A DNA stretch of 64,000 bases from contig CAYNAR010000003.1 of NCBI GenBank assembly GCA_964395625.1, positions 5,857-69,856 of the forward strand. The letters are read 5' to 3'. The position numbers were made by a program, and so were the translations under genes. This document shows, in pieces, positions 26,982 to 60,204 of the stretch. The DNA comes from an uncultured Gammaproteobacteria bacterium. Lineage in GTDB: Bacteria; Patescibacteriota; Patescibacteriia; Patescibacteriales; WJLG01. The first letter of the stretch is position 1; each line of letters opens with the position of its first letter. A model generated the notes under the pieces. The model saw nothing but the letters and a program-made list of their open reading frames with translations. It was not told where the DNA came from and did not search any database.

Positions 26982-28898
26982 ATGACAAATAGTGAGATAA
27001 CGGTTTTTGCGGAAACGACTTTTCGCAACAAGCGTTTAAAATTCGGCATCAAGACGGACGATAGACGACGCCATATGTATGTGATCGGTAAGACTGGTAT
27101 GGGTAAGTCTACTATTTTGGAAAATATGATTGTCGACGATATCCGTGCCGGTAGGGGAGTGGCCGTCGTCGACCCTCATGGCGACTTGGCCGAGAAAATA
27201 ATGCAATTCATTCCTTCGGAGAGGGTGAAGGATATTATTTATTTCAATCCGGCCGATACGGAATTTCCTATCGCCTTCAATATCGTGGAGCAGGTGGACG
27301 CTAAGGTTCGCCATCTTGTCGCGTCCGGTTTGATAGGCGTTTTTAAGAAACTTTGGGCGGATTCTTGGGGTCCTCGTTTGGAATATATTTTGCGTAACGC
27401 CATCTTGGCGGTTTTGGATTATCCTAACTCAACCTTGCTTTCGGTTATACGTATGCTTTCGGATAAGGTCTATCGTAAGAAGATCGTCGATGCGGTTCAA
27501 GATCCGATGGTCAAATCGTTTTGGCAGAAGGAATTCGCCGGATACGCCGATAAATTTGCCTCTGAGGCCGTCTCTCCTATTCAAAACAAGGTCGGTCAAT
27601 TCTTGTCCAGTTCTTTGATTCGTAATATCATCGGTCAATCCAAATCTTCCATTGATGTCCGCAAGGCCATGGACGAGGGAAAAGTCTTGATCATGAATTT
27701 TTCCAAAGGGCATATAGGAGAGGATAATTCCGCCTTACTTGGTGCGATGATGATTACCAAGATACAGTTGGCGGCTATGAGTAGAGTTGACATACCGGAG
27801 AAGGAGAGGCGTGATTTCTATCTTTATATCGACGAGTTTCAGAACTTCTCTACCGATTCTTTCGCCAATATATTATCGGAAGCTAGAAAATATCACCTCA
27901 GTCTTATTATCGCTCATCAATATATAGAGCAGCTCACCGACACTGTCAAAGCGGCCGTATTCGGCAACGTCGGAACTTTAGTCTCCTTCCGTGTCGGCGC
28001 GGTCGACGCGGAGGAGCTCGTCAAAGAATTCGCCCCCGTCTTCACGGAGGAGGATATTTTGAATCTTCCTAAGTTTGAATTCTATATCAAGTTAATGATT
28101 GACGGTGTTGCCTCCACTCCGTTTTCGGCGAGAGGTCTTTTGCCTCTACGTGAAGACGAGAAGACTCATAATTTGGATAAAGCCGTCGAGTGGACAAGGA
28201 GGAATTACGCTAAAGAGAGGATATTGGTGGAGGAGGAGATTATGCATTCTCATTTTAACGATGATCAACCCATGGCTCATGTCGCTCCAGGGCAAGTTAT
28301 AAATATTCCTTCTCAACCGGCCTCTTTACCGCCGGTGATTAAGGGTGGTTTTCCTCCGGCCATAAAGAACTTCCCATCTTCACCTAGTCAAGCGCCTAGA
28401 GAAATTCCGTCGCCGAAAGAAGAGATAAAATCCATCGCATCGCATGTGGAAAATGTTCCGGTTCAAGCTCCGGTGATCCCAGTGGCTAAGCCTGTAATAA
28501 GGATAGATAAGGACAATTCATCGAGTATCCTCAATGAGGCGATTTGCTCTAATTGTGGTAGTCAGACCAAAGTTCCTTTTAAACCGGATGGCACCAGACC
28601 GATCTATTGTAAAAATTGCTTATCGGAATTGAAGAAGAAAAAGAAGGACGAGATGGACGAACGTAAAAATACGCCACGTCCTAATTTCTCGGAGATATCG
28701 CCATCCGCTTTGGGCAAGGAATTGGACGCCGAGCCGGTGGAAGCCTCAGGATTGTCTTTGTCGACGCTAAAAGAGTCGGCCCTTGTAAATTTTTCTAAAA
28801 ACAGCCATAATCATAAAAATCCATCGCAAGACATGCTTAAAGACGGTCAAATAAAAGAGAAAGAGTTGACCGAAGGCGAGGATATAATATTCGATTAA
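26982..28898 (+). CDS. VirD4/TraG/TraD-like (type IV coupling protein / HerA-FtsK superfamily) P-loop ATPase. It lacks N-terminal TM helices and carries a Pro-rich linker and a C-terminal CxxC..CxxC zinc ribbon.
   Basis: Walker A 'VIGKTGMGKST', 'VVDPHGDL', 'FNP.D.EFP(I)AFN', Walker B 'FYLYIDEFQNF' and 'IIAHQYIEQL' (TraG-D_C-like). C-terminal 'CSNCGSQTKVPFKPDGTRPIYCKNC'. Confidence 0.8.
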   Translation: MTNSEITVFAETTFRNKRLKFGIKTDDRRRHMYVIGKTGMGKSTILENMIVDDIRAGRGVAVVDPHGDLAEKIMQFIPSERVKDIIYFNPADTEFPIAFNIVEQVDAKVRHLVASGLIGVFKKLWADSWGPRLEYILRNAILAVLDYPNSTLLSVIRMLSDKVYRKKIVDAVQDPMVKSFWQKEFAGYADKFASEAVSPIQNKVGQFLSSSLIRNIIGQSKSSIDVRKAMDEGKVLIMNFSKGHIGEDNSALLGAMMITKIQLAAMSRVDIPEKERRDFYLYIDEFQNFSTDSFANILSEARKYHLSLIIAHQYIEQLTDTVKAAVFGNVGTLVSFRVGAVDAEELVKEFAPVFTEEDILNLPKFEFYIKLMIDGVASTPFSARGLLPLREDEKTHNLDKAVEWTRRNYAKERILVEEEIMHSHFNDDQPMAHVAPGQVINIPSQPASLPPVIKGGFPPAIKNFPSSPSQAPREIPSPKEEIKSIASHVENVPVQAPVIPVAKPVIRIDKDNSSSILNEAICSNCGSQTKVPFKPDGTRPIYCKNCLSELKKKKKDEMDERKNTPRPNFSEISPSALGKELDAEPVEASGLSLSTLKESALVNFSKNSHNHKNPSQDMLKDGQIKEKELTEGEDIIFD

Positions 28899-37686: not shown

Positions 37687-39875
37687 ATGAAAGCTCAGAG
37701 GCAACTCGATGATTTTTTCGCTTCTTGCGAGGAAAGTTCACTGGCGTTATTGGTGGATATAGTGAGTAAGGCAAAGGGGTCTTTGCGTAAGATTTTTAAT
37801 TTCAAGGGGGTTAGTCACGACGATCTTGTAGGTCGTTTAATGATCAGAGTTAATGATTTTTCTTATCAAGATGATGATATCGTGTTTAGCCGGTTGGTAG
37901 CAAAAGCTAAGTTTTGCGAAGCGACTTTTAAAGAGAGCGATAAGCACATGTGTCTTTTAGGTGCGATTCTTTCAACTCCCGAATCGGTGGCTTGCCACGT
38001 TTTGGAATCGATCGATGTCGATTGTGAAAAAATGCTTACGGATATTGCTAATGAATTTGAATTCGAAAAAGATATTTTTTATTTTAATTCTAAAGAGGAG
38101 TTTTCCATGAGTGATACAACAAGAGCTAAGAAGAAAAAGGTTTCGATAGCCGCTGACTATGGCGTTGATCTTACTGAAAGGTACAAGACGGAAGCGCCAA
38201 AAGCCTTCGTCTCTCGGGAAAAATATATTTCACAGCTAACAAGAATGCTTGGTCGCATGAATAAGAATAGCGTATTGGTGCTTGGCGGGTCCGGTGTCGG
38301 CAAGACGGCCTTAATCAACGAGTTGGCTTATCGCATAGCTACTGGAAAAATTGGTGGTTCTTTGGCGGAAATGAGTATATTCGAATTAAAATTCGAGGAG
38401 TCTGATGATTTACCGAAGAAATATAGCGAGATGTCGGATTTTGTTTCCAGAATAATGGGTTTGTTCGATGATTTGAGTAAGGTGGTTTTTTCGTTGATTG
38501 GCAAGAAGTGGTTTTGTCTGGCGCTAACAGCGATATCTTTACAACCTTCGATTTTTTAAATTCTATTAGCCCTGTTTTTCGTGAGTCTCGAGCCAGATTT
38601 ATCTTAGTCGGTCATTTTGACAGTTATGAAGAGTTTACCATGGATTTTCCGCAAGTTTCAGGATTGACCGGGGTTTTGAAAATCGAAGAAGCTTCGGAGA
38701 ATGAAACCGTGGATATGATGATGGCCAGAAAGTCTTCTTATGAGGATCACCATGGTGTGAAATTTTCCGAAAGTGCTATCCGCAAGATAATGACTCACAA
38801 TAAAGATGATTACGGTGGCGTATATTTGCCTGGCAGGGCTCTGGATATTTTAGACGATCTTGGTAGCGATTTTTCCAAGTCAGGAGTTGTCGAAATAGGC
38901 GAGGCGGAGGTCGAGTCGTTTTTTAAAGAAGATAAAGTTGCGACATCGGCTGTCGTTTCTGTGAAAGAAGGTTATGAAAGTAAGTTATCGAACCTGGCGA
39001 AAGAGCTAAAGAGCAGCGTTATAGGACAGGACTTGGCTTGCGAGCTGACCACTGATGCTATAATGGCGATAAATGATCCTGACAAGCCGATAGCTTCGCT
39101 TTTTTATGCCGGACCATCAGGCGTCGGTAAAACGCTTCTGGCTAGAAAATTGGCCGAGATACTTTTTGGCGATAGTGAAAGCTTTGCACGTTTTGATATG
39201 TCGGAATACTATGATAAGCATGAAATAGCTCGTTTGATTGGCTCTCCTCCGGGATATGTCGGATACGATGATGGCAGTAAGTTGGCCACACAGCTCAAAA
39301 AAAGACCGAACTCAGTCATTCTTCTCGATGAGATAGAAAAGGCCCACCATTCCATATTTGATATTTTACTGCAGATTATGGATTATGGTTCGTTGACTAA
39401 TGGCAGGGGCGATAGGATGTGTTTTAGAAAGAGCATTATAGTGATGACTTCTAATATCGATTTACGAAAGGGTCGTTCTATAGGTTTTTCTAAAGAGAAG
39501 AGCGATAAGGAGAAACGAATGGCTTTTGGTCAGGCTATGCAAGATCATTCATTCCGCAAAGAGTTCATAGGTCGTGTCGATCAGTTCGTCGAGTTTAGTC
39601 AGTTGTCTTCAGGCGACTTTTTAAAGATAGTCGATTTGGAGATCGCTAAAATCGCCGAGTGCGCTAAGAAAAGAGGATTGGGGAATTTGGTTTTTGGACA
39701 AGAGGCTAAGGAGCTTATTGTTGCCAGAAGCGAAACAAGCGAGTATGGTGCTAGAAACCTAAACAATACTTTGCTTAAATTGGTTCGCGTTCCTTTGGGT
39801 AAAATGTTGATTTGTGGTGGCCCCAAGGAAAAGATAGAAGTTTCGGCAAGTGATAATGGATTAGTGTTCATTTAA
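37687..39875 (+). pseudogene. ClpA/ClpC-family double-AAA+ chaperone ATPase interrupted by a frameshift in a T6 run (38486-38491). It is either a pseudogene or a homopolymer sequencing error.
   Basis: Frame A (37687-38559) has Clp_N-like repeats plus D1 Walker A 'LGGSGVGKTALINELAYRI'. Frame B (from about 38481 to 39875) has 'FFVDWQEVVLSGAN' (D1 Walker B region) and D2 'VIGQD.A', 'FYAGPSGVGKTLLARKLA', 'SEYYDKHEIARLIGSPPGYVGY', 'VILLDEIEKAH'. Adding one T gives the continuous sequence '..SKVVFFVDWQEVVLSG..'. Confidence 0.85.
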
Positions 39876-53233: not shown

Positions 53234-53260
53234 AGCCCTGAAGTGATTCGGGGCTTTTTT
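53234..53260 (+). terminator. Rho-independent terminator.
   Basis: gccctg-aagtgatt-cggggc followed by tttttt. Confidence 0.7.
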
Positions 53261-53261
53261 A

Positions 53262-53290
53262 TTGACATTTTATATATTTTATGATATAAT
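53262..53290 (+). promoter_or_regulatory. Consensus sigma-70 promoter: TTGACA, 17-nt spacer, TATAAT.
   Basis: ttattgaca-ttttatatattttatga-tataat lies about 85 nt upstream of the ATG at 53376. It shares the 'TTTTATTGACATTT' context with the promoter at 52053. Confidence 0.7.
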
Positions 53291-54728: not shown

Positions 54729-56546
54729 ATGAAACCTCAAGAACTACGCCAAAAGTACTTAGATTTTTTTAAAGAAAACGGACATTCCGCCATAAAAAGC
54801 GCCTCTTTGATACCGGAAAACGACCCGACAGTGCTTTTTACTACCGCTGGCATGCATCCTTTAGTGCCTTATTTGATGGGCGAGACCCATCCGGCCGGTA
54901 AACGCTTGGTCGATGTCCAGAAATGCGTCCGCACCGACGATATCGAAGAGGTTGGTGATAATCGCCATTTGGTTTTCTTTGAGATGATGGGTAATTGGTC
55001 GCTTGGTGATTATTTTAAGCAAGATTCTATAAAATGGAGCTTCGAGTTTTTGACTTCGCCGAAATGGCTGGGTTTGGATATTAATCGTCTGGCCGTCTCC
55101 GTCTTTGCCGGTGATAATGACGCCCCTTTCGATCAGGAGGCCTTCGACCTTTGGAAAGAACTTGGTATTCCGGAGAAGAGGATTGCTAAATTGCCAAAAA
55201 AGAACAACTGGTGGGGTCCGGCTGGCGTGACTGGTCCATGTGGCCCGGATACGGAAATATTTTACTGGACGGGGGATGCCGACAAGACGCCAGAAAGTTT
55301 CAATGATGACAATGACCTTTGGGTGGAGATTTGGAACAACGTCTTCATGCAATATAACAAGAAGGCCGATGGCACTTTCGAGCCTTTGGCGCAGAAGAAT
55401 GTGGATACCGGAATGGGCATGGAGAGAATTTTTACCGTAATAAAAGGCCAAAAAACTGTCTTTGATACCGATTTATTTCAACCATTGATAAAGAAGGTCG
55501 AGGAATTGTCCGGTAAAAAATACGGGGAGAACGAGGAAGACGACCGTTCTTTTAGGATTATCGCCGATCATTTACGCTCTTCCGTGTTTATAATAGGAGA
55601 CGAAAGAGGAGTTCCGCCGAGTAATACCGGTGCCGGTTATATCGTTCGCCGTTTGCTTCGCCGTGCCGTGGTCCACGGTCGTCGCTTGAATATATCCGCT
55701 TCCGCATGGCTTTCTTCCGTCGCCGAGATGGTTATTGGTGACTATAATGAGGCCTACCCTGAATTATTAGCCAATAAGGAGTTTATTTTAAATAATGTTA
55801 GCGAGGAAGAGTCGAAGTTTGAAAAGACATTGGAGAATGGTCTTAAAGAGTTCAATCAGCAATGCGAAACTTTGACTTGCAAGATGGAAGATAGTGACGA
55901 CATAAGTGTCACCATTCCCGGCGATATGGCCTTTATGATGTTCTCTACTTTTGGTTTTCCTATAGAATTGATCAGGGAGATCGCCAAAGATAAGAAAATG
56001 ACCATCGACGAAGCCGGTTTTGCCGAGGAATTCAAGAAGCATCAAGAGCTTTCTCGCACAGCTTCCGCTGGTATGTTTAAAGGTGGTTTGGCTGATGCTA
56101 GCGAAGAGACAAGGCGTTTGCATACCGCCGCCCACCTTCTTTTGGCTTCTTTGCGTCGTGTTCTTGGTCCTCATGTTCTTCAAAAGGGTAGTAATATAAC
56201 GGCGGAACGTCTGCGTTTCGACTTCTCTCATGGTGAAAAGATGACTTCCGAGCAAATCGCCGAAGTGGAGAGAATGGTCAATGAGACTATAGACAAGGAT
56301 TTGCCGATCGTTTGCGAAGAGAAAACTCTGGAGGAGGCCAGGAACCAGGGCGCGATGGGTGTCTTCGATTCTAAGTATGGGGAGATGGTCAAGGTTTATA
56401 AGGTGTGTTCCGGGGACGAAGTCGTCTCTTGCGAGATATGCGGTGGTCCTCATGCCGAGCGCACCGGCGAACTCGGTCATTTCAAAATAGCGAAGGAGGA
56501 GAGCTCTTCCTCTGGTGTGCGTAGAATAAAAGCCATTCTGGATTGA
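54729..56546 (+). CDS. alaS: Alanine--tRNA ligase, short form (catalytic, tRNA-recognition and editing domains; no C-Ala domain).
   Basis: 'LRQKYLDFFKENGH..I.SASL(I)P.NDPT(V)LFT.AGM..(L/F).PY(L)' and 'RHL.FFEMMGNWS(L)GDYFK'. Editing-site 'HTAAHLL' and 'CGGPH'. It has 605 aa and ends shortly after the editing domain. Confidence 0.93.
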   Translation: MKPQELRQKYLDFFKENGHSAIKSASLIPENDPTVLFTTAGMHPLVPYLMGETHPAGKRLVDVQKCVRTDDIEEVGDNRHLVFFEMMGNWSLGDYFKQDSIKWSFEFLTSPKWLGLDINRLAVSVFAGDNDAPFDQEAFDLWKELGIPEKRIAKLPKKNNWWGPAGVTGPCGPDTEIFYWTGDADKTPESFNDDNDLWVEIWNNVFMQYNKKADGTFEPLAQKNVDTGMGMERIFTVIKGQKTVFDTDLFQPLIKKVEELSGKKYGENEEDDRSFRIIADHLRSSVFIIGDERGVPPSNTGAGYIVRRLLRRAVVHGRRLNISASAWLSSVAEMVIGDYNEAYPELLANKEFILNNVSEEESKFEKTLENGLKEFNQQCETLTCKMEDSDDISVTIPGDMAFMMFSTFGFPIELIREIAKDKKMTIDEAGFAEEFKKHQELSRTASAGMFKGGLADASEETRRLHTAAHLLLASLRRVLGPHVLQKGSNITAERLRFDFSHGEKMTSEQIAEVERMVNETIDKDLPIVCEEKTLEEARNQGAMGVFDSKYGEMVKVYKVCSGDEVVSCEICGGPHAERTGELGHFKIAKEESSSSGVRRIKAILD

Positions 56547-56743: not shown

Positions 56744-56772
56744 TTGACAATTAAACAAAACTTCTATATAAT
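56744..56772 (+). promoter_or_regulatory. Consensus sigma-70 promoter (TTGACA, 17-nt spacer, TATAAT) for the infA-rpmJ-rpsM-rpsK-rpsD-rpoA-rplQ operon.
   Basis: ttgaca-attaaacaaaacttcta-tataat lies about 85 nt upstream of infA. Confidence 0.7.
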
Positions 56773-56856
56773 CCTTAAATACAAAGGTAAAAGACTAATT
56801 TTAAAACTTAAAATAAGCAATTTACCAATAGTTAGGTTTGGTAATTTTTTTTGTTA

Positions 56857-57099
56857 ATGTCAGAAAACAAAAATAATCAAGCAGCAAATTCCAAAGACTT
56901 CATTGAAATGGAGGGTGAGGTTTTGGAGTTGATGCCCGCCGCCAGTTTTCGTATCGCTCTTACCAGCGGTCACGAGATATTGGCCCACTTATCCGGAAGA
57001 ATGCGGATGAATAAAATTCGTCTGGCGGTTGGAGATAGGGTCAAAGTACAGATTAGCCCTTATGATCTTACCAAAGGTAGGATTACTTTCCGTCTATAA
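56857..57099 (+). CDS. infA: Translation initiation factor IF-1.
   Basis: '[64 protein letters not shown]' is an S1-like IF1. The ATG at 56857 is preferred over the TTG at 56851. Confidence 0.93.
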
Positions 57100-57139
57100 T
57101 CAGCTTATTTTTAAAATTCACTTTTAATTTTCATAGAAT

Positions 57140-57253
57140 ATGAAGGTCAGAGCCAGCGTTAAAAAAATTTGTAAAGATTGTAAAGTGGTCCGTCGCAAGG
57201 CCAGAGTTTGTGTTATTTGCAAGAATCCTAAACATAAACAAAGACAAGGGTAA
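57140..57253 (+). CDS. rpmJ: 50S ribosomal protein L36.
   Basis: Not in the ORF track because it is under 60 aa. Translation '[37 protein letters not shown]' is the canonical L36 zinc ribbon. Confidence 0.93.
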
Positions 57254-57274
57254 AATTATTAGCATTATATAATT

Positions 57275-57670
57275 ATGGCGCAAGCAAGAATAGCCGGTGT
57301 AAACATTCCGAGCGAAAAAAAAGTCAAAATTTCTTTATCTTATATCTATGGTATCGGTCCTGCCAGAGCTATGGATGTATTGAATGAGGCCAAAGTCGAT
57401 CCTGAAGAGAGGGTGAAGAATCTCACTGAAGCCCAGGTTAATAAGCTAAGAGATATTATTGAGAAGAAGTATGTCGTCGAAGGTGATTTGAGAAGAGAGA
57501 TCGTCGGCAACATCAAGCGCATGAAGGAAATCGGCGCTTATCGCGGTTTGAGACATGCCAAGGGTTTGCCTGTTCGCGGTCAGACCACTAAGCGTAACAG
57601 TCGCACTGTTCGCGGTAACGTTAGAAGGACGGCTTCCTCTGGAAGAAAACCGGCCGCTCAGAAGACCTAA
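57275..57670 (+). CDS. rpsM: 30S ribosomal protein S13.
   Basis: 'ARIAGVNIP..K.V.ISL.YIYGIG...A' and 'YRGLRH..GLPVRGQ.TK.N(S)RT'. Confidence 0.95.
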   Translation: MAQARIAGVNIPSEKKVKISLSYIYGIGPARAMDVLNEAKVDPEERVKNLTEAQVNKLRDIIEKKYVVEGDLRREIVGNIKRMKEIGAYRGLRHAKGLPVRGQTTKRNSRTVRGNVRRTASSGRKPAAQKT

Positions 57671-57698
57671 ACTTTTGCATAAATAGATTCAATATAAT

Positions 57699-58301
57699 AT
57701 GACTGAAGAGAAAAAGGATATCAAGGTGGCGGCAGAGGCCAAGACCGAAAAAGAAATCAAAAAAGAGATCCCGGTGGAACCGGAAGTTTCTTTGGATTTT
57801 GACGATGAACCGGATACCGATTCTTCTGGCGATAAGAAGCCGTTGATGGATACCGAGGAGTTGCCTGATGAAATCAAGAAGAAATTGGAGAGCCGCAAGG
57901 AAGAGAAATCCGGAAAGAAATTCAAGAAGAAAAAGAAGAAGGTTAGAACCGGTGTCGATGTCGGCAAGATTTACGTCAAAGCCACCTATAACAATACCAT
58001 AGTCACCGTGACCGATTTGAACGGTAACGTCATCTCTTGGGCTAGCGCCGGCATGGCCGGTTTCAAGGGCCCGAAGAAGGCTACCTCTTACGCCGCTCAG
58101 ATCATCACTAAGATCGCTTTGATCAAGGCTAAGGAAGATTTCGGTTTCAAGGAAGCCAGCGTCTTCGTCAATGGTATCGGCACAGGTCGCGAGGCCGCTA
58201 TCCGTTCCGTCAATGCCAATGGCATCAACGTAACCTCTATTAAAGATATTACCCCAATACCTCATAACGGCTGCCGTCCAAAGAAGCCGAGAAGAGTATA
58301 G
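57699..58301 (+). CDS. rpsK: 30S ribosomal protein S11 with an N-terminal acidic/lysine-rich extension of about 70 aa.
   Basis: Core '[46 protein letters not shown]......A...G.....V.V.G.G.GREAAIR......[19 protein letters not shown]'. The N-terminal 'MTEEKKDIK...KKFKKKKKK' is additional. Confidence 0.9.
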
Positions 58302-58319
58302 TTTATCAATAGTCCACTT

Positions 58320-58952
58320 ATGAAAAATATCGATCCAAAGTGCAAACAATGCCGTCGTATCGGCGAGAAGCTGATGCTCAAGGGTGCCCGTTGCAACTCC
58401 ACCAAGTGCGCCATGTCCAAGCGTCCTTTTCCGCCAGGTTTCCATGGTCCTAAATCCAAGGGTCCTGCTAAGAAGAGCGATTACGCTAAACAGCTCACCG
58501 AGAAGCAGAAGGCTAGAAAGCAATATTTGTTGTCCGAGAAGCAATTCGGGATAATCTTCGATAAGGCCGCTAAGAAAGTCGGTAACACCGAGAAGTTGTT
58601 GATTCAACTCTTGGAGATGCGTTTAGATAACGTCGCTTATCGTTTGGGATTCGCTTTGTCTCGCTCCGAGGCCAGACAATTGGTCAATCATGGTCATTTC
58701 ACCGTCAACGGACGCAAGGTCACTATCCCTTCCTTCAAGACTAAGACTGGCGATGTCATCAAGATGAAGGCCGCTTCATTGCGCAGCAAGAAGTTCGCCA
58801 ATCTTTCCGAGCGCATCAAGTCCGTCGACATCCCTGGTTGGTTGCATCTTACCTTGGACGATCTTTCCGGCAAGGTCTTGCATGAACCTTCCGCCAAGGA
58901 TTTGAAGACGAACCTCGATCCACACGTGATCGTCGAGTTCTATTCTAGATAA
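58320..58952 (+). CDS. rpsD: 30S ribosomal protein S4.
   Basis: 'CKQCRR.GEKL.LKG.RC...KCA', 'Y..QL.EKQK....Y', 'LE.RLDNV.YR.GFA.SR..ARQLV.HGH..VNG..V.IPS'. Confidence 0.95.
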   Translation: MKNIDPKCKQCRRIGEKLMLKGARCNSTKCAMSKRPFPPGFHGPKSKGPAKKSDYAKQLTEKQKARKQYLLSEKQFGIIFDKAAKKVGNTEKLLIQLLEMRLDNVAYRLGFALSRSEARQLVNHGHFTVNGRKVTIPSFKTKTGDVIKMKAASLRSKKFANLSERIKSVDIPGWLHLTLDDLSGKVLHEPSAKDLKTNLDPHVIVEFYSR

Positions 58953-59001
58953 TTTAATTTTTCTAATACCTCCCCTCATTAACAAGGAGGGCTGAAATTC
59001 T

Positions 59002-59832
59002 ATGGAATCCATCGCCAAACCAAACAAAGTAGAGTTTTTAAAGGGACAGAATCCTAACGAGGCCACTGTGGTCGTTGGTCCTTTTTATCCCGGCTACGGG
59101 ATGACCATCGGCAATTCTTTGCGTCGCGTGCTTTTGTCTTCTTTGGCCGGAACTGCCGCCGTTGGTGTTAAAATCGAGGGCGCCAGTCATGAATTCACTT
59201 CCTTGCCACATGTTAAAGAGGATGTCTTGCAGATAATTTTGAATTTGAAGAAGTTGAAGGTCGAATTATTGATCGAGACTGAAGAGGAGATTAAATTGGA
59301 GTTGGACGTTCGCGGTAAGAAAGAGGTCGTTGCCGGAGATATCAGCAAGGACTCTCGTATCAAGATCGCCAATCCGGATTTGGTCATTGCCAACATTACG
59401 GACATGGCCGGTTCCTTGAAGATGGAAATCACCATCGCTAAAGGACGCGGTTATCGCCCGGTCGAAGCCATCGAGGCCAAAGACAAGAAAGGCGAAATCG
59501 GTTATATCGATATGGATGCCATTTTCTCCCCGGTCCTTTTGGCCGGCTTGAAGGTGGAGAACGTTCGCGTCGGTAAGATGACTAACTGGGATAAGTTGAG
59601 CATTCAAATCATCACTGATGGCACTATAACCCCTGAAAAGGCTTATGATGATGCCGTTAAGATATTGCAGGATCAAGTCAGTGCCTTGACCGCCGGTCAG
59701 AGCAATGAAGAGACTGTTGTTTCCGATGAAGTCGAGTCTTCCGAAGAGGCCGAAGAGATCGCCGAGGAGTTCGAAGAGGAGGATGAAGAGCCAAGAAAGG
59801 AGAAAAAGTCTAAAAAGGCCAATAAAGAATAA
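59002..59832 (+). CDS. rpoA: DNA-directed RNA polymerase subunit alpha, N-terminal (assembly) domain only. The C-terminal domain is replaced by a 45-aa acidic tail.
   Basis: 'GPFYPGYGMTIGNSLRRVLLSSLAGTA..GVKIEG..HEF......V.EDV..IILNLK' and 'RGYRP'. The sequence ends '..ALTAGQSNEETVVSDEVESSEEAEEIAEEFEEEDEEPRKEKKSKKANKE'. No '(L/I)ELSVRS.NCLK' HhH motif is present. Confidence 0.9.
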   Translation: MESIAKPNKVEFLKGQNPNEATVVVGPFYPGYGMTIGNSLRRVLLSSLAGTAAVGVKIEGASHEFTSLPHVKEDVLQIILNLKKLKVELLIETEEEIKLELDVRGKKEVVAGDISKDSRIKIANPDLVIANITDMAGSLKMEITIAKGRGYRPVEAIEAKDKKGEIGYIDMDAIFSPVLLAGLKVENVRVGKMTNWDKLSIQIITDGTITPEKAYDDAVKILQDQVSALTAGQSNEETVVSDEVESSEEAEEIAEEFEEEDEEPRKEKKSKKANKE

Positions 59833-59853
59833 AAAGTTAGTAGATAAAATATT

Positions 59854-60204
59854 ATGAGACACAGAAAGAAAAAGGTAACCCTAGATAGGAAGACAGAGGC
59901 TCGTGGCATGTTGCTACGCAATTTAGCTTCCAGCGTTTTGATTTACGAAAAGGTCAAAACTACCGAAGCTAAGGCTAAGGCTGTCAGAAGCAGGGTCGAA
60001 AAGATGATTACCTTGGCAAAGGCCGGTGATTTGGCCTCTACCAAGAGATTAATCGCTTATTTGCCACAAAAGACTGCGGTCACCAAAGCTATCGAAGTTT
60101 TAAAGAGTCGCTACGAAAATCGCACTGGAGGCTATACTCGCATCGTCAAGATCGGTTCTCGCCAAGGTGATGGTGCTAAAGTAGTGATGATAGAATTAGT
60201 GTAA
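59854..60204 (+). CDS. rplQ: 50S ribosomal protein L17.
   Basis: 'MRHRKK...L.R....R..(M)LRNLA.S.(L)..E.(V)KTT..KAK..R...E(K)(M)IT.AK' and 'GGYTRI.K...R.GD.A'. Confidence 0.93.
   Translation: MRHRKKKVTLDRKTEARGMLLRNLASSVLIYEKVKTTEAKAKAVRSRVEKMITLAKAGDLASTKRLIAYLPQKTAVTKAIEVLKSRYENRTGGYTRIVKIGSRQGDGAKVVMIELV

Follow-up and report, generated by a model that had tools for sequence, protein, structure and literature searches.

The alpha subunit's C-terminal domain (alpha-CTD) is regarded as a regular component of bacterial RNA polymerase, where it serves as the reader of UP elements and as the docking site for many activators. In E. coli, an alpha subunit deprived of this domain still assembles and basal transcription is kept, while UP-element and activator-dependent transcription is lost (PMC8321222). 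Natural loss has been reported in the same 2021 paper for the endosymbionts Hodgkinia and Tremblaya, for Euglena plastids and, in one sentence, for Parcubacteria, so that the bare loss is known in passing. The source cited there for Parcubacteria (Nelson and Stegen 2015, PMC4508563) does not have the word "polymerase" in its main text, and the claim is not traceable in it. CRP/FNR-type activators are notably absent from CPR (PMC12531629). In our literature search, no description was found of a replacement tail on CPR alpha subunits, of its charge organisation, of an AT-hook there, or of the mutual exclusion of CTD and basic tail, and the tail of the CTD-less alpha goes unmentioned in a 2025 study comparing promoters across bacteria, a CPR species among them.

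Below we report the analysis of one such subunit, encoded in a window of 64 kb (the whole stretch of DNA analysed here) from a bacterium within the Patescibacteria/CPR, whose closest named relatives in homology searches are Falkowbacteria. Compared with the canonical RpoA of E. coli, B. subtilis and Thermus, the window alpha has a homologous N-terminal domain (NTD), the same operon position and a flexible acidic segment after the NTD; unlike them, it is without the helix-hairpin-helix domain PF03118 and ends 44 residues past the NTD, with a basic tip at the position where the CTD would start. The alphas of Hodgkinia, Tremblaya and Euglena plastids are similar in that the CTD is lost in reduced genomes and the NTD kept. 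However, PMC8321222 treats these cases as erosion and describes no replacement tail, whereas the loss in CPR spans large free-standing lineages and goes together with a conserved tail that is basic or an AT-hook. The Pfam domains of the window protein (Rpb3/RpoA insert and dimerisation) are shared by archaeal Rpo3 and eukaryotic Rpb3/AC40, which have no alpha-CTD according to the family definitions, but the window alpha is bacterial-type by NCBIfam, PDB and operon context.

Outside the alpha family, the closest worked-out precedent is the C-terminal HMGA-like region of Myxococcus xanthus CarD, together with its histone-H1-like variants, which forms the disordered tail of a protein that binds RNAP and likewise runs from an acidic segment into basic RGRP AT-hooks. 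The likeness is one of design alone, with no homology: CarD is an accessory factor on the beta subunit and carries four hooks in about 140 residues, whereas the CPR alpha has one short tip fused to a core subunit and present twice per enzyme. Highly acidic disordered segments on RNA polymerase are further known from the Firmicute delta subunit (RpoE) and from sigma-70 region 1.1, both possible nucleic-acid mimics. Neither of them replaces the alpha-CTD and their folded parts are unrelated; moreover, in the CPR alphas the acidic part is dispensable across lineages, unlike the basic end.

The rpoA locus and the missing C-terminal domain

The features of the locus are given here with coordinates in the window.

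56744..56772, + strand: perfect TTGACA-17-TATAAT promoter upstream of infA (12/12 consensus), likely the operon promoter
56851..58952, + strand: infA, rpmJ (57140-57253), rpsM, rpsK and rpsD, upstream of rpoA in the same operon (Pfam eIF-1a, L36, S13, S11, S4)
59002..59832, + strand: rpoA coding sequence, 276 aa plus stop codon (Pfam PF01193 and PF01000; TIGR02027 above cutoff; PDB RpoA at E=1e-49)
59002..59697, + strand: alpha N-terminal assembly/dimerisation domain, residues 1-232 (AlphaFold2 pLDDT about 80-90; last helix at 211-231)
59698..59790, + strand: acidic segment predicted to be disordered, residues 233-263, with 17 D/E, no K/R and net charge -17, at the interdomain-linker position of canonical alpha
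59791..59829, + strand: basic C-terminal tip PRKEKKSKKANKE, residues 264-276, with 7 K/R, 2 E and net charge +5, where the CTD would begin
59854..60204, + strand: rplQ (L17; PF01196 E=4e-32), beginning 21 nt past the rpoA stop

The rpoA gene, of which one copy is found in the window, opens with ATG behind an AAGGAGG ribosome-binding site, and its product ends in ...SDEVESSEEAEEIAEEFEEEDEEPRKEKKSKKANKE. Pfam assigns to it PF01000 (E=5e-30) and PF01193 (E=5.5e-15), the two parts of the NTD, while PF03118, the alpha-CTD, does not appear even at E<=1. With the NCBIfam model TIGR02027 the score is 234.8 bits, just above the cutoff of 227.8, and the match covers model positions 2-230 of 298. Among the seven other matching full-length rpoA models, six stay under their cutoffs, which is of relevance to the annotation of CTD-less alphas, and all seven alignments end at model positions 232-263. 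The PDB matches are all RpoA chains (E=1e-42 to 1e-49), with alignments that end at about residue 250. An alignment of 30 relatives keeps the NSLRR motif and 63 further NTD columns invariant, and 80 related loci share the gene order rpsM-rpsK-rpsD-rpoA-rplQ, which is canonical for the alpha operon. The protein is a genuine RNA polymerase alpha subunit of the bacterial type, made by a CPR bacterium that resembles Falkowbacteria, and its preliminary description as a 276-aa RpoA confined to the NTD is borne out by the coverage of Pfam, TIGR02027 and PDB alike. In passing, within 58968-58991 a CCTCC about 12 nt upstream of the Shine-Dalgarno sequence AAGGAGG might form a 5-bp anti-SD hairpin with it, which is short enough to be due to chance.

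The absence of the alpha-CTD, also claimed in that description, is confirmed by several lines of analysis. With all three frames translated over about 59600-59960, the frames other than that of rpoA are closed at the 3' end; tblastn searches of the window with the CTDs of E. coli, B. subtilis and Thermus give a best E of 0.53, which is noise; and a profile HMM built from 94 CTDs, on which positive controls reach a median of 71 bits, has no hit in the 64-kb window translated in six frames, its best score there being 6.4 bits. These three results rule out a frameshift or a hidden CTD. A hidden domain would moreover have no room, as had been remarked from the sequence, since rplQ starts 21 nt after the rpoA stop. 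Neither does a stand-alone CTD gene, the other escape considered at the outset, turn up with the profile in six frames of the 80 related loci (about 0.5 Mb in all, with flanks of 3-10 kb per genome), where the best score including the window is 7.9 bits. The identical 276-aa protein is encoded on contigs from four independent assemblies made from separate sequencing runs, which rules out an assembly error.

The relatives show the same architecture. The best 120 homologues (56-100% identity, 247-309 aa, on many independent contigs) have PF01000 and PF01193 without PF03118 in 120 of 120 cases, and in 80 of 80 species-representative genomes, which were recovered using an alignment of CTD-less RpoA proteins, rpoA ends 19-75 aa past the NTD and is followed by rplQ after a median gap of about 20 nt. 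The records of these relatives are MAGs of Falkowbacteria, the Parcubacteria group or the Patescibacteria group. There is thus a very small chance left for the reading that a frameshift or misassembly conceals the domain, or that a separate CTD gene or a second full-length rpoA lies elsewhere: the survey covers 64 kb of the host genome and 3-10 kb flanks in the relatives, but the identical ORF in four assemblies, the same architecture in 120 homologues and 80 species, the closed frames with rplQ directly downstream, and the profile searches that came out negative for the window as well as for related loci of about 0.5 Mb all speak against it. The folded helix-hairpin-helix CTD has been lost in evolution.

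It may be mentioned that several public MAG records with an rpoA operon of Patescibacteria type bear the titles "uncultured Gammaproteobacteria", "Nanoarchaeia archaeon", "Methylomirabilis sp." or "Methanomicrobia archaeon" (loci L001, L002, L004, L005 and others; proteins P0022, P0027 and P0095), and these titles are probably taxonomic mislabels.

Distribution of the loss in CPR

On a wider scale, the 150 best representatives of 50%-identity clusters divide into 94 with a CTD and 56 without, and about 40 of these 56 are genuine, the remainder being fragments or frameshifted entries. Homology searches place CTD-less alphas in Falkowbacteria, Kerfeldbacteria, Berkelbacteria and some Paceibacterota, and CTD-bearing ones in the CPR lineages Doudnabacteria, Andersenbacteria, Pacebacteria, Sungbacteria and Microgenomates. 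Since several CPR lineages retain the domain, its loss is derived within CPR and not a property of the whole radiation. The comparison across relatives, which the preliminary description had pointed to, therefore gives a double answer: the truncation is universal in the 120 best homologues and the 80 species, yet it stops short of several other CPR lineages.

When 253 NTDs are placed on a neighbour-joining tree, those from CTD-less alphas fall in many separate blocks, and the four CTD-less lineages named above are in different blocks with CTD-bearing CPR groups in between. The tree is noisy, resting on about 230 residues, and the 31 changes of its Fitch minimum are surely too many. These NTD sequences nevertheless make it likely that the CTD was lost independently more than once, and because the CTD-less groups sit in separate blocks, the tree suggests that the CTD was repeatedly and convergently swapped for a basic tail. 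In part of CPR, the CTD-less alpha with its tail is widespread, and it is both real and of biological significance; with the CTD systematically absent from large lineages, much of the textbook picture of promoter architecture and activation is inapplicable there.

Charge organisation of the tail and its possible role

The tail of the window RpoA has 44 residues (233-276). In the AlphaFold2 model, made with a 30-sequence alignment, it is predicted to be disordered with pLDDT below 50, while residues 1-232 fold confidently. The protein had been described as ending in an acidic tail, and this is correct for residues 233-263 (net -17) and incorrect for the last 13 residues, which are basic (net +5). 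The window tail thus has the character of an HMGA-like or H1-like tail, that is, predicted disorder (pLDDT <50) with a net charge of -17 followed by +5. The same order is conserved across species while the tail sequence diverges: 79 of 81 species have a net positive charge over the last 12 residues (median +6), and 69 of 81 a net negative one over the 28 residues before them (13-40 from the C-terminus; median -7). The tips are of two main types, Lys-rich (KKEKKEKK..KK) in 42 of the 81 species and AT-hook (KKRGRPKK) in 34, with about seven switches on the tree. On the KKRGRPKK tips of the relatives, Pfam AT_hook (PF02178) scores 10-12.7 bits, under its cutoff of 17.4 because the motif sits at the extreme C-terminus, and the R-G-R-P core is present by motif. 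The window tip PRKEKKSKKANKE has no AT-hook core (RGRP/GRP) and, with just 7 K/R in 13 residues, is the weakest variant.

As for the acidic part, it aligns in the PDB match with the interdomain linker of B. subtilis alpha. Such linkers, with a median of 27 aa in 240 CTD-bearing alphas, are themselves net negative in 183 of the 240, with a median net charge of -3, so the window segment is stronger in charge than typical linkers. The acidic stretch is probably a retained interdomain linker that has become more acidic, and from its position and from the acidity of canonical linkers we infer an architecture of NTD, retained linker and a basic tip replacing the CTD.

The preliminary description had taken the acidic tail as a possible DNA mimic or interaction module. 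This idea does not hold up well, for the segment occupies a linker position that is net-acidic in 183 of 240 CTD-bearing alphas, and it is missing from other CTD-less lineages. In its fuller form, the segment would act like sigma region 1.1 or the C-terminus of Firmicute delta, occupying or competing for the DNA/RNA-binding surfaces of the polymerase and thereby raising promoter selectivity and recycling. The 17 D/E with no K/R over 31 residues, and the excess of charge over typical linkers (median net -3), would suit such a role, and the delta C-terminal region also combines a Lys tract with an acidic tract. However, besides the coincidence with the ancestral linker position, the tails of the Berkelbacteria-like and Paceibacterota CTD-less alphas are wholly basic and histone-H1-like, without any acidic part. 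We therefore conclude that acidity is not what replaces the CTD, and consider mimicry an unlikely function of the tail.

The basic end shows a different pattern. In a pooled set of 483 full-length alphas (241 with CTD, 242 without), a basic tip or AT-hook stands at the end of 212 of the 242 CTD-less proteins (88%), whereas a net-basic extension past the CTD occurs in none of 239 CTD-bearing ones, in which a median of 0 residues follow the domain. The other 30 of the 242 have no basic end, and a few of them are purely acidic at the end (e.g. P0126). By this sequence comparison, what the CTD-less alphas have in common is a C-terminal tip that is basic or an AT-hook. The either-or of CTD and basic tail provides a testable hypothesis for how minimal cells keep contact with upstream DNA.

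Our preferred reading is that the basic tip on its tether takes over from the CTD in contacting upstream DNA, non-specifically or with a preference for AT, and that class I activation is lost; we assign to this reading a probability of roughly one half. Close to certain are the structural facts on which it builds, namely the absent CTD, its distribution over lineages, the predicted disorder and charge pattern of the tail, and the either-or of CTD and basic end, whereas a DNA-binding tip and the effects on promoters are what we infer from them. The tip most likely substitutes for the upstream contact of the CTD because the CTD and the basic end exclude each other, because many lineages carry a minor-groove motif and because the swap has apparently recurred. 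According to this reading, the NTD would dimerise and nucleate core assembly as usual, and the 44-residue tail predicted to be disordered would then follow, so that each alpha dimer would offer two tails as minimal tethered DNA contacts. The basic tips would bind the backbone or the minor groove upstream of the -35 hexamer, non-specifically or with a preference for A/T, and would stand in for the generic upstream-DNA contacts of the CTD. The acidic tether would keep the tip mobile and away from the DNA channel of the enzyme, and may shield a tip that is not engaged. Promoter strength would rest mainly on near-perfect -35 and -10 hexamers, with true UP-element read-out and class I activation gone. 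Several points count against a DNA-binding tip: disordered tails rich in Lys are also able to bind RNA, acidic proteins or membranes; the tip of the window alpha is the weakest variant; 30 of 242 CTD-less alphas have no basic end; S11 has a similar extension; and the composition upstream of promoters gives no positive sign (see below for the last two).

Extended to the radiation, this reading would mean that the folded alpha-CTD gave way independently, in several CPR lineages, to a short disordered tail, basic or with an AT-hook, carried on the linker that was kept, as a convergent minimal contact with upstream DNA, giving a class of polymerases without class I activation or UP-element read-out and reliant on near-perfect core promoters. 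This extension is put forward tentatively, as a possibility that we do not favour over its negation.

A simpler account is that nothing was replaced. The CTD would have been lost in reductive evolution as no activators or UP elements remained, and the tail would be the leftover linker plus low-complexity drift from slippage in GA-rich codons, with no specific function. Such a neutral origin agrees with the acidic part lying at the old linker position, with the poor conservation of the tail sequence and its length range of 19-75 aa, with the 30 of 242 CTD-less alphas that have no basic end, with the charged extension of S11 and with the promoters having no UP-like signal (see below for both). 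We consider it rather unlikely, given that the acidic-then-basic order persists in 69-79 of 81 species despite sequence divergence, that an exact KKRGRPKK stands at the extreme C-terminus in 34 species, that basic ends occur in 88% of CTD-less alphas versus 0% of CTD-bearing ones, and that most window proteins have no such tails.

Regarding the last point, among about 45 window genes the only long charged extensions are those of RpoA, at the C-terminus, and of S11, at the N-terminus. The S11 gene rpsK (57699-58301) encodes an 88-aa charged extension (57699-57962), acidic and then Lys-rich, in front of the Pfam S11 domain. It is kept in 72 related loci with a median of 84.5 aa and the motif ELP(D/E)(D/E)IKKKLE...KKKKKK. 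Because a protein of the same operon has a similar acidic-then-basic extension, a tendency toward charged extensions throughout the lineage is conceivable.

Promoters and other genes of the window

With the CTD absent, and since E. coli needs it for both, the UP-element and class I routes through the alpha-CTD are closed to the window enzyme. The preliminary description had reasoned that promoter recognition and activation must work differently here, and as far as UP-element reading and class I activation through the alpha-CTD are concerned, we judge this sound. The loss of these routes fits the lack of CRP/FNR-type activators in CPR and the presence of perfect-consensus promoters. No Pfam match to transcription or sigma factors was obtained among the scanned window ORFs, which comprised most of the larger plus-strand ORFs, the 3967-aa ORF and several others being left out.

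Near-consensus promoters had been noticed in the window, and it does contain perfect ones. Besides the infA site, a second TTGACA-17-TATAAT site is located at 53262-53290, and two 12/12 sites in the last 18 kb of the window are estimated to be far above the expectation from base composition. In about 45 of 80 related species, the infA-rpmJ-rpsM-rpsK-rpsD-rpoA-rplQ operon has a promoter that matches the consensus at 12 of 12 positions. In the related loci (L002-L080), the infA promoter lies about 2.2-2.8 kb upstream of rpoA, often with a C-rich triplet (CTC or CCC) before it. At the second site, an intrinsic-terminator hairpin with a T-run (53234-53261) adjoins the -35 hexamer of the promoter that follows, and because the terminator abuts the -35 there, it leaves no intergenic room for upstream activator sites. 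In many species, likewise, the stop codon or terminator of the upstream gene falls within 10-30 nt of the -35.

We also analysed the composition upstream of 88 promoter-like sites, many of them orthologous and thus non-independent. No clear UP-like A/T enrichment is found at -40..-50 (AT 0.60-0.65), and AT is mildly raised to 0.72-0.75 at -55..-70 of the same mostly orthologous sites. Lineages with AT-hook tips and those with Lys-rich tips do not differ significantly in upstream AT content (p=0.7-0.9), and the longest upstream A/T run shows a weak trend between them (p=0.07). As the composition tests, which are weak, give no sequence-specific UP-like element, a tip that binds DNA would probably do so with low specificity.

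The missing A/T signal also fits another reading, in which the basic tip has a target different from promoter DNA. This could be nascent RNA, ribosomes or rRNA (transcription-translation coupling), NusA or a partner protein that is acidic. RNA binding is known for Lys-rich and for extended AT-hook peptides, and in model bacteria NusA and other factors are among the contacts of the alpha-CTD. Against this stand the canonical RGRP core in 34 species, which is the classic minor-groove DNA motif, the precedent of CarD, where the corresponding activity is DNA binding, and the fact that the data name no partner. We regard such a target as improbable, and retain upstream DNA as the preferred one. The absence of the CTD is also of relevance to the design of expression systems in the first genetically tractable CPR bacteria.

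Some further genes of the window deserve mention. At 54729-56546, the alanyl-tRNA synthetase has just 605 aa, with catalytic and tRNA_SAD domains and no Pfam family recorded for its C-terminal part. A ClpB-like AAA+ chaperone is apparently split into two overlapping ORFs (37687-38559 and 38508-39875), the first with AAA_16 and the second with AAA_2, the AAA lid and ClpB_D2-small, which could be due to a frameshift, programmed or erroneous, or represent a genuine split. The region 6-30511 contains the 3967-aa ORF, followed by proteins with fn3, Big_13 and cohesin domains and many ORFs without a Pfam match, and a VirD4/TrwB-like coupling ATPase is encoded at 26982-28898; this region may be a surface or type-IV-secretion-like gene cluster.
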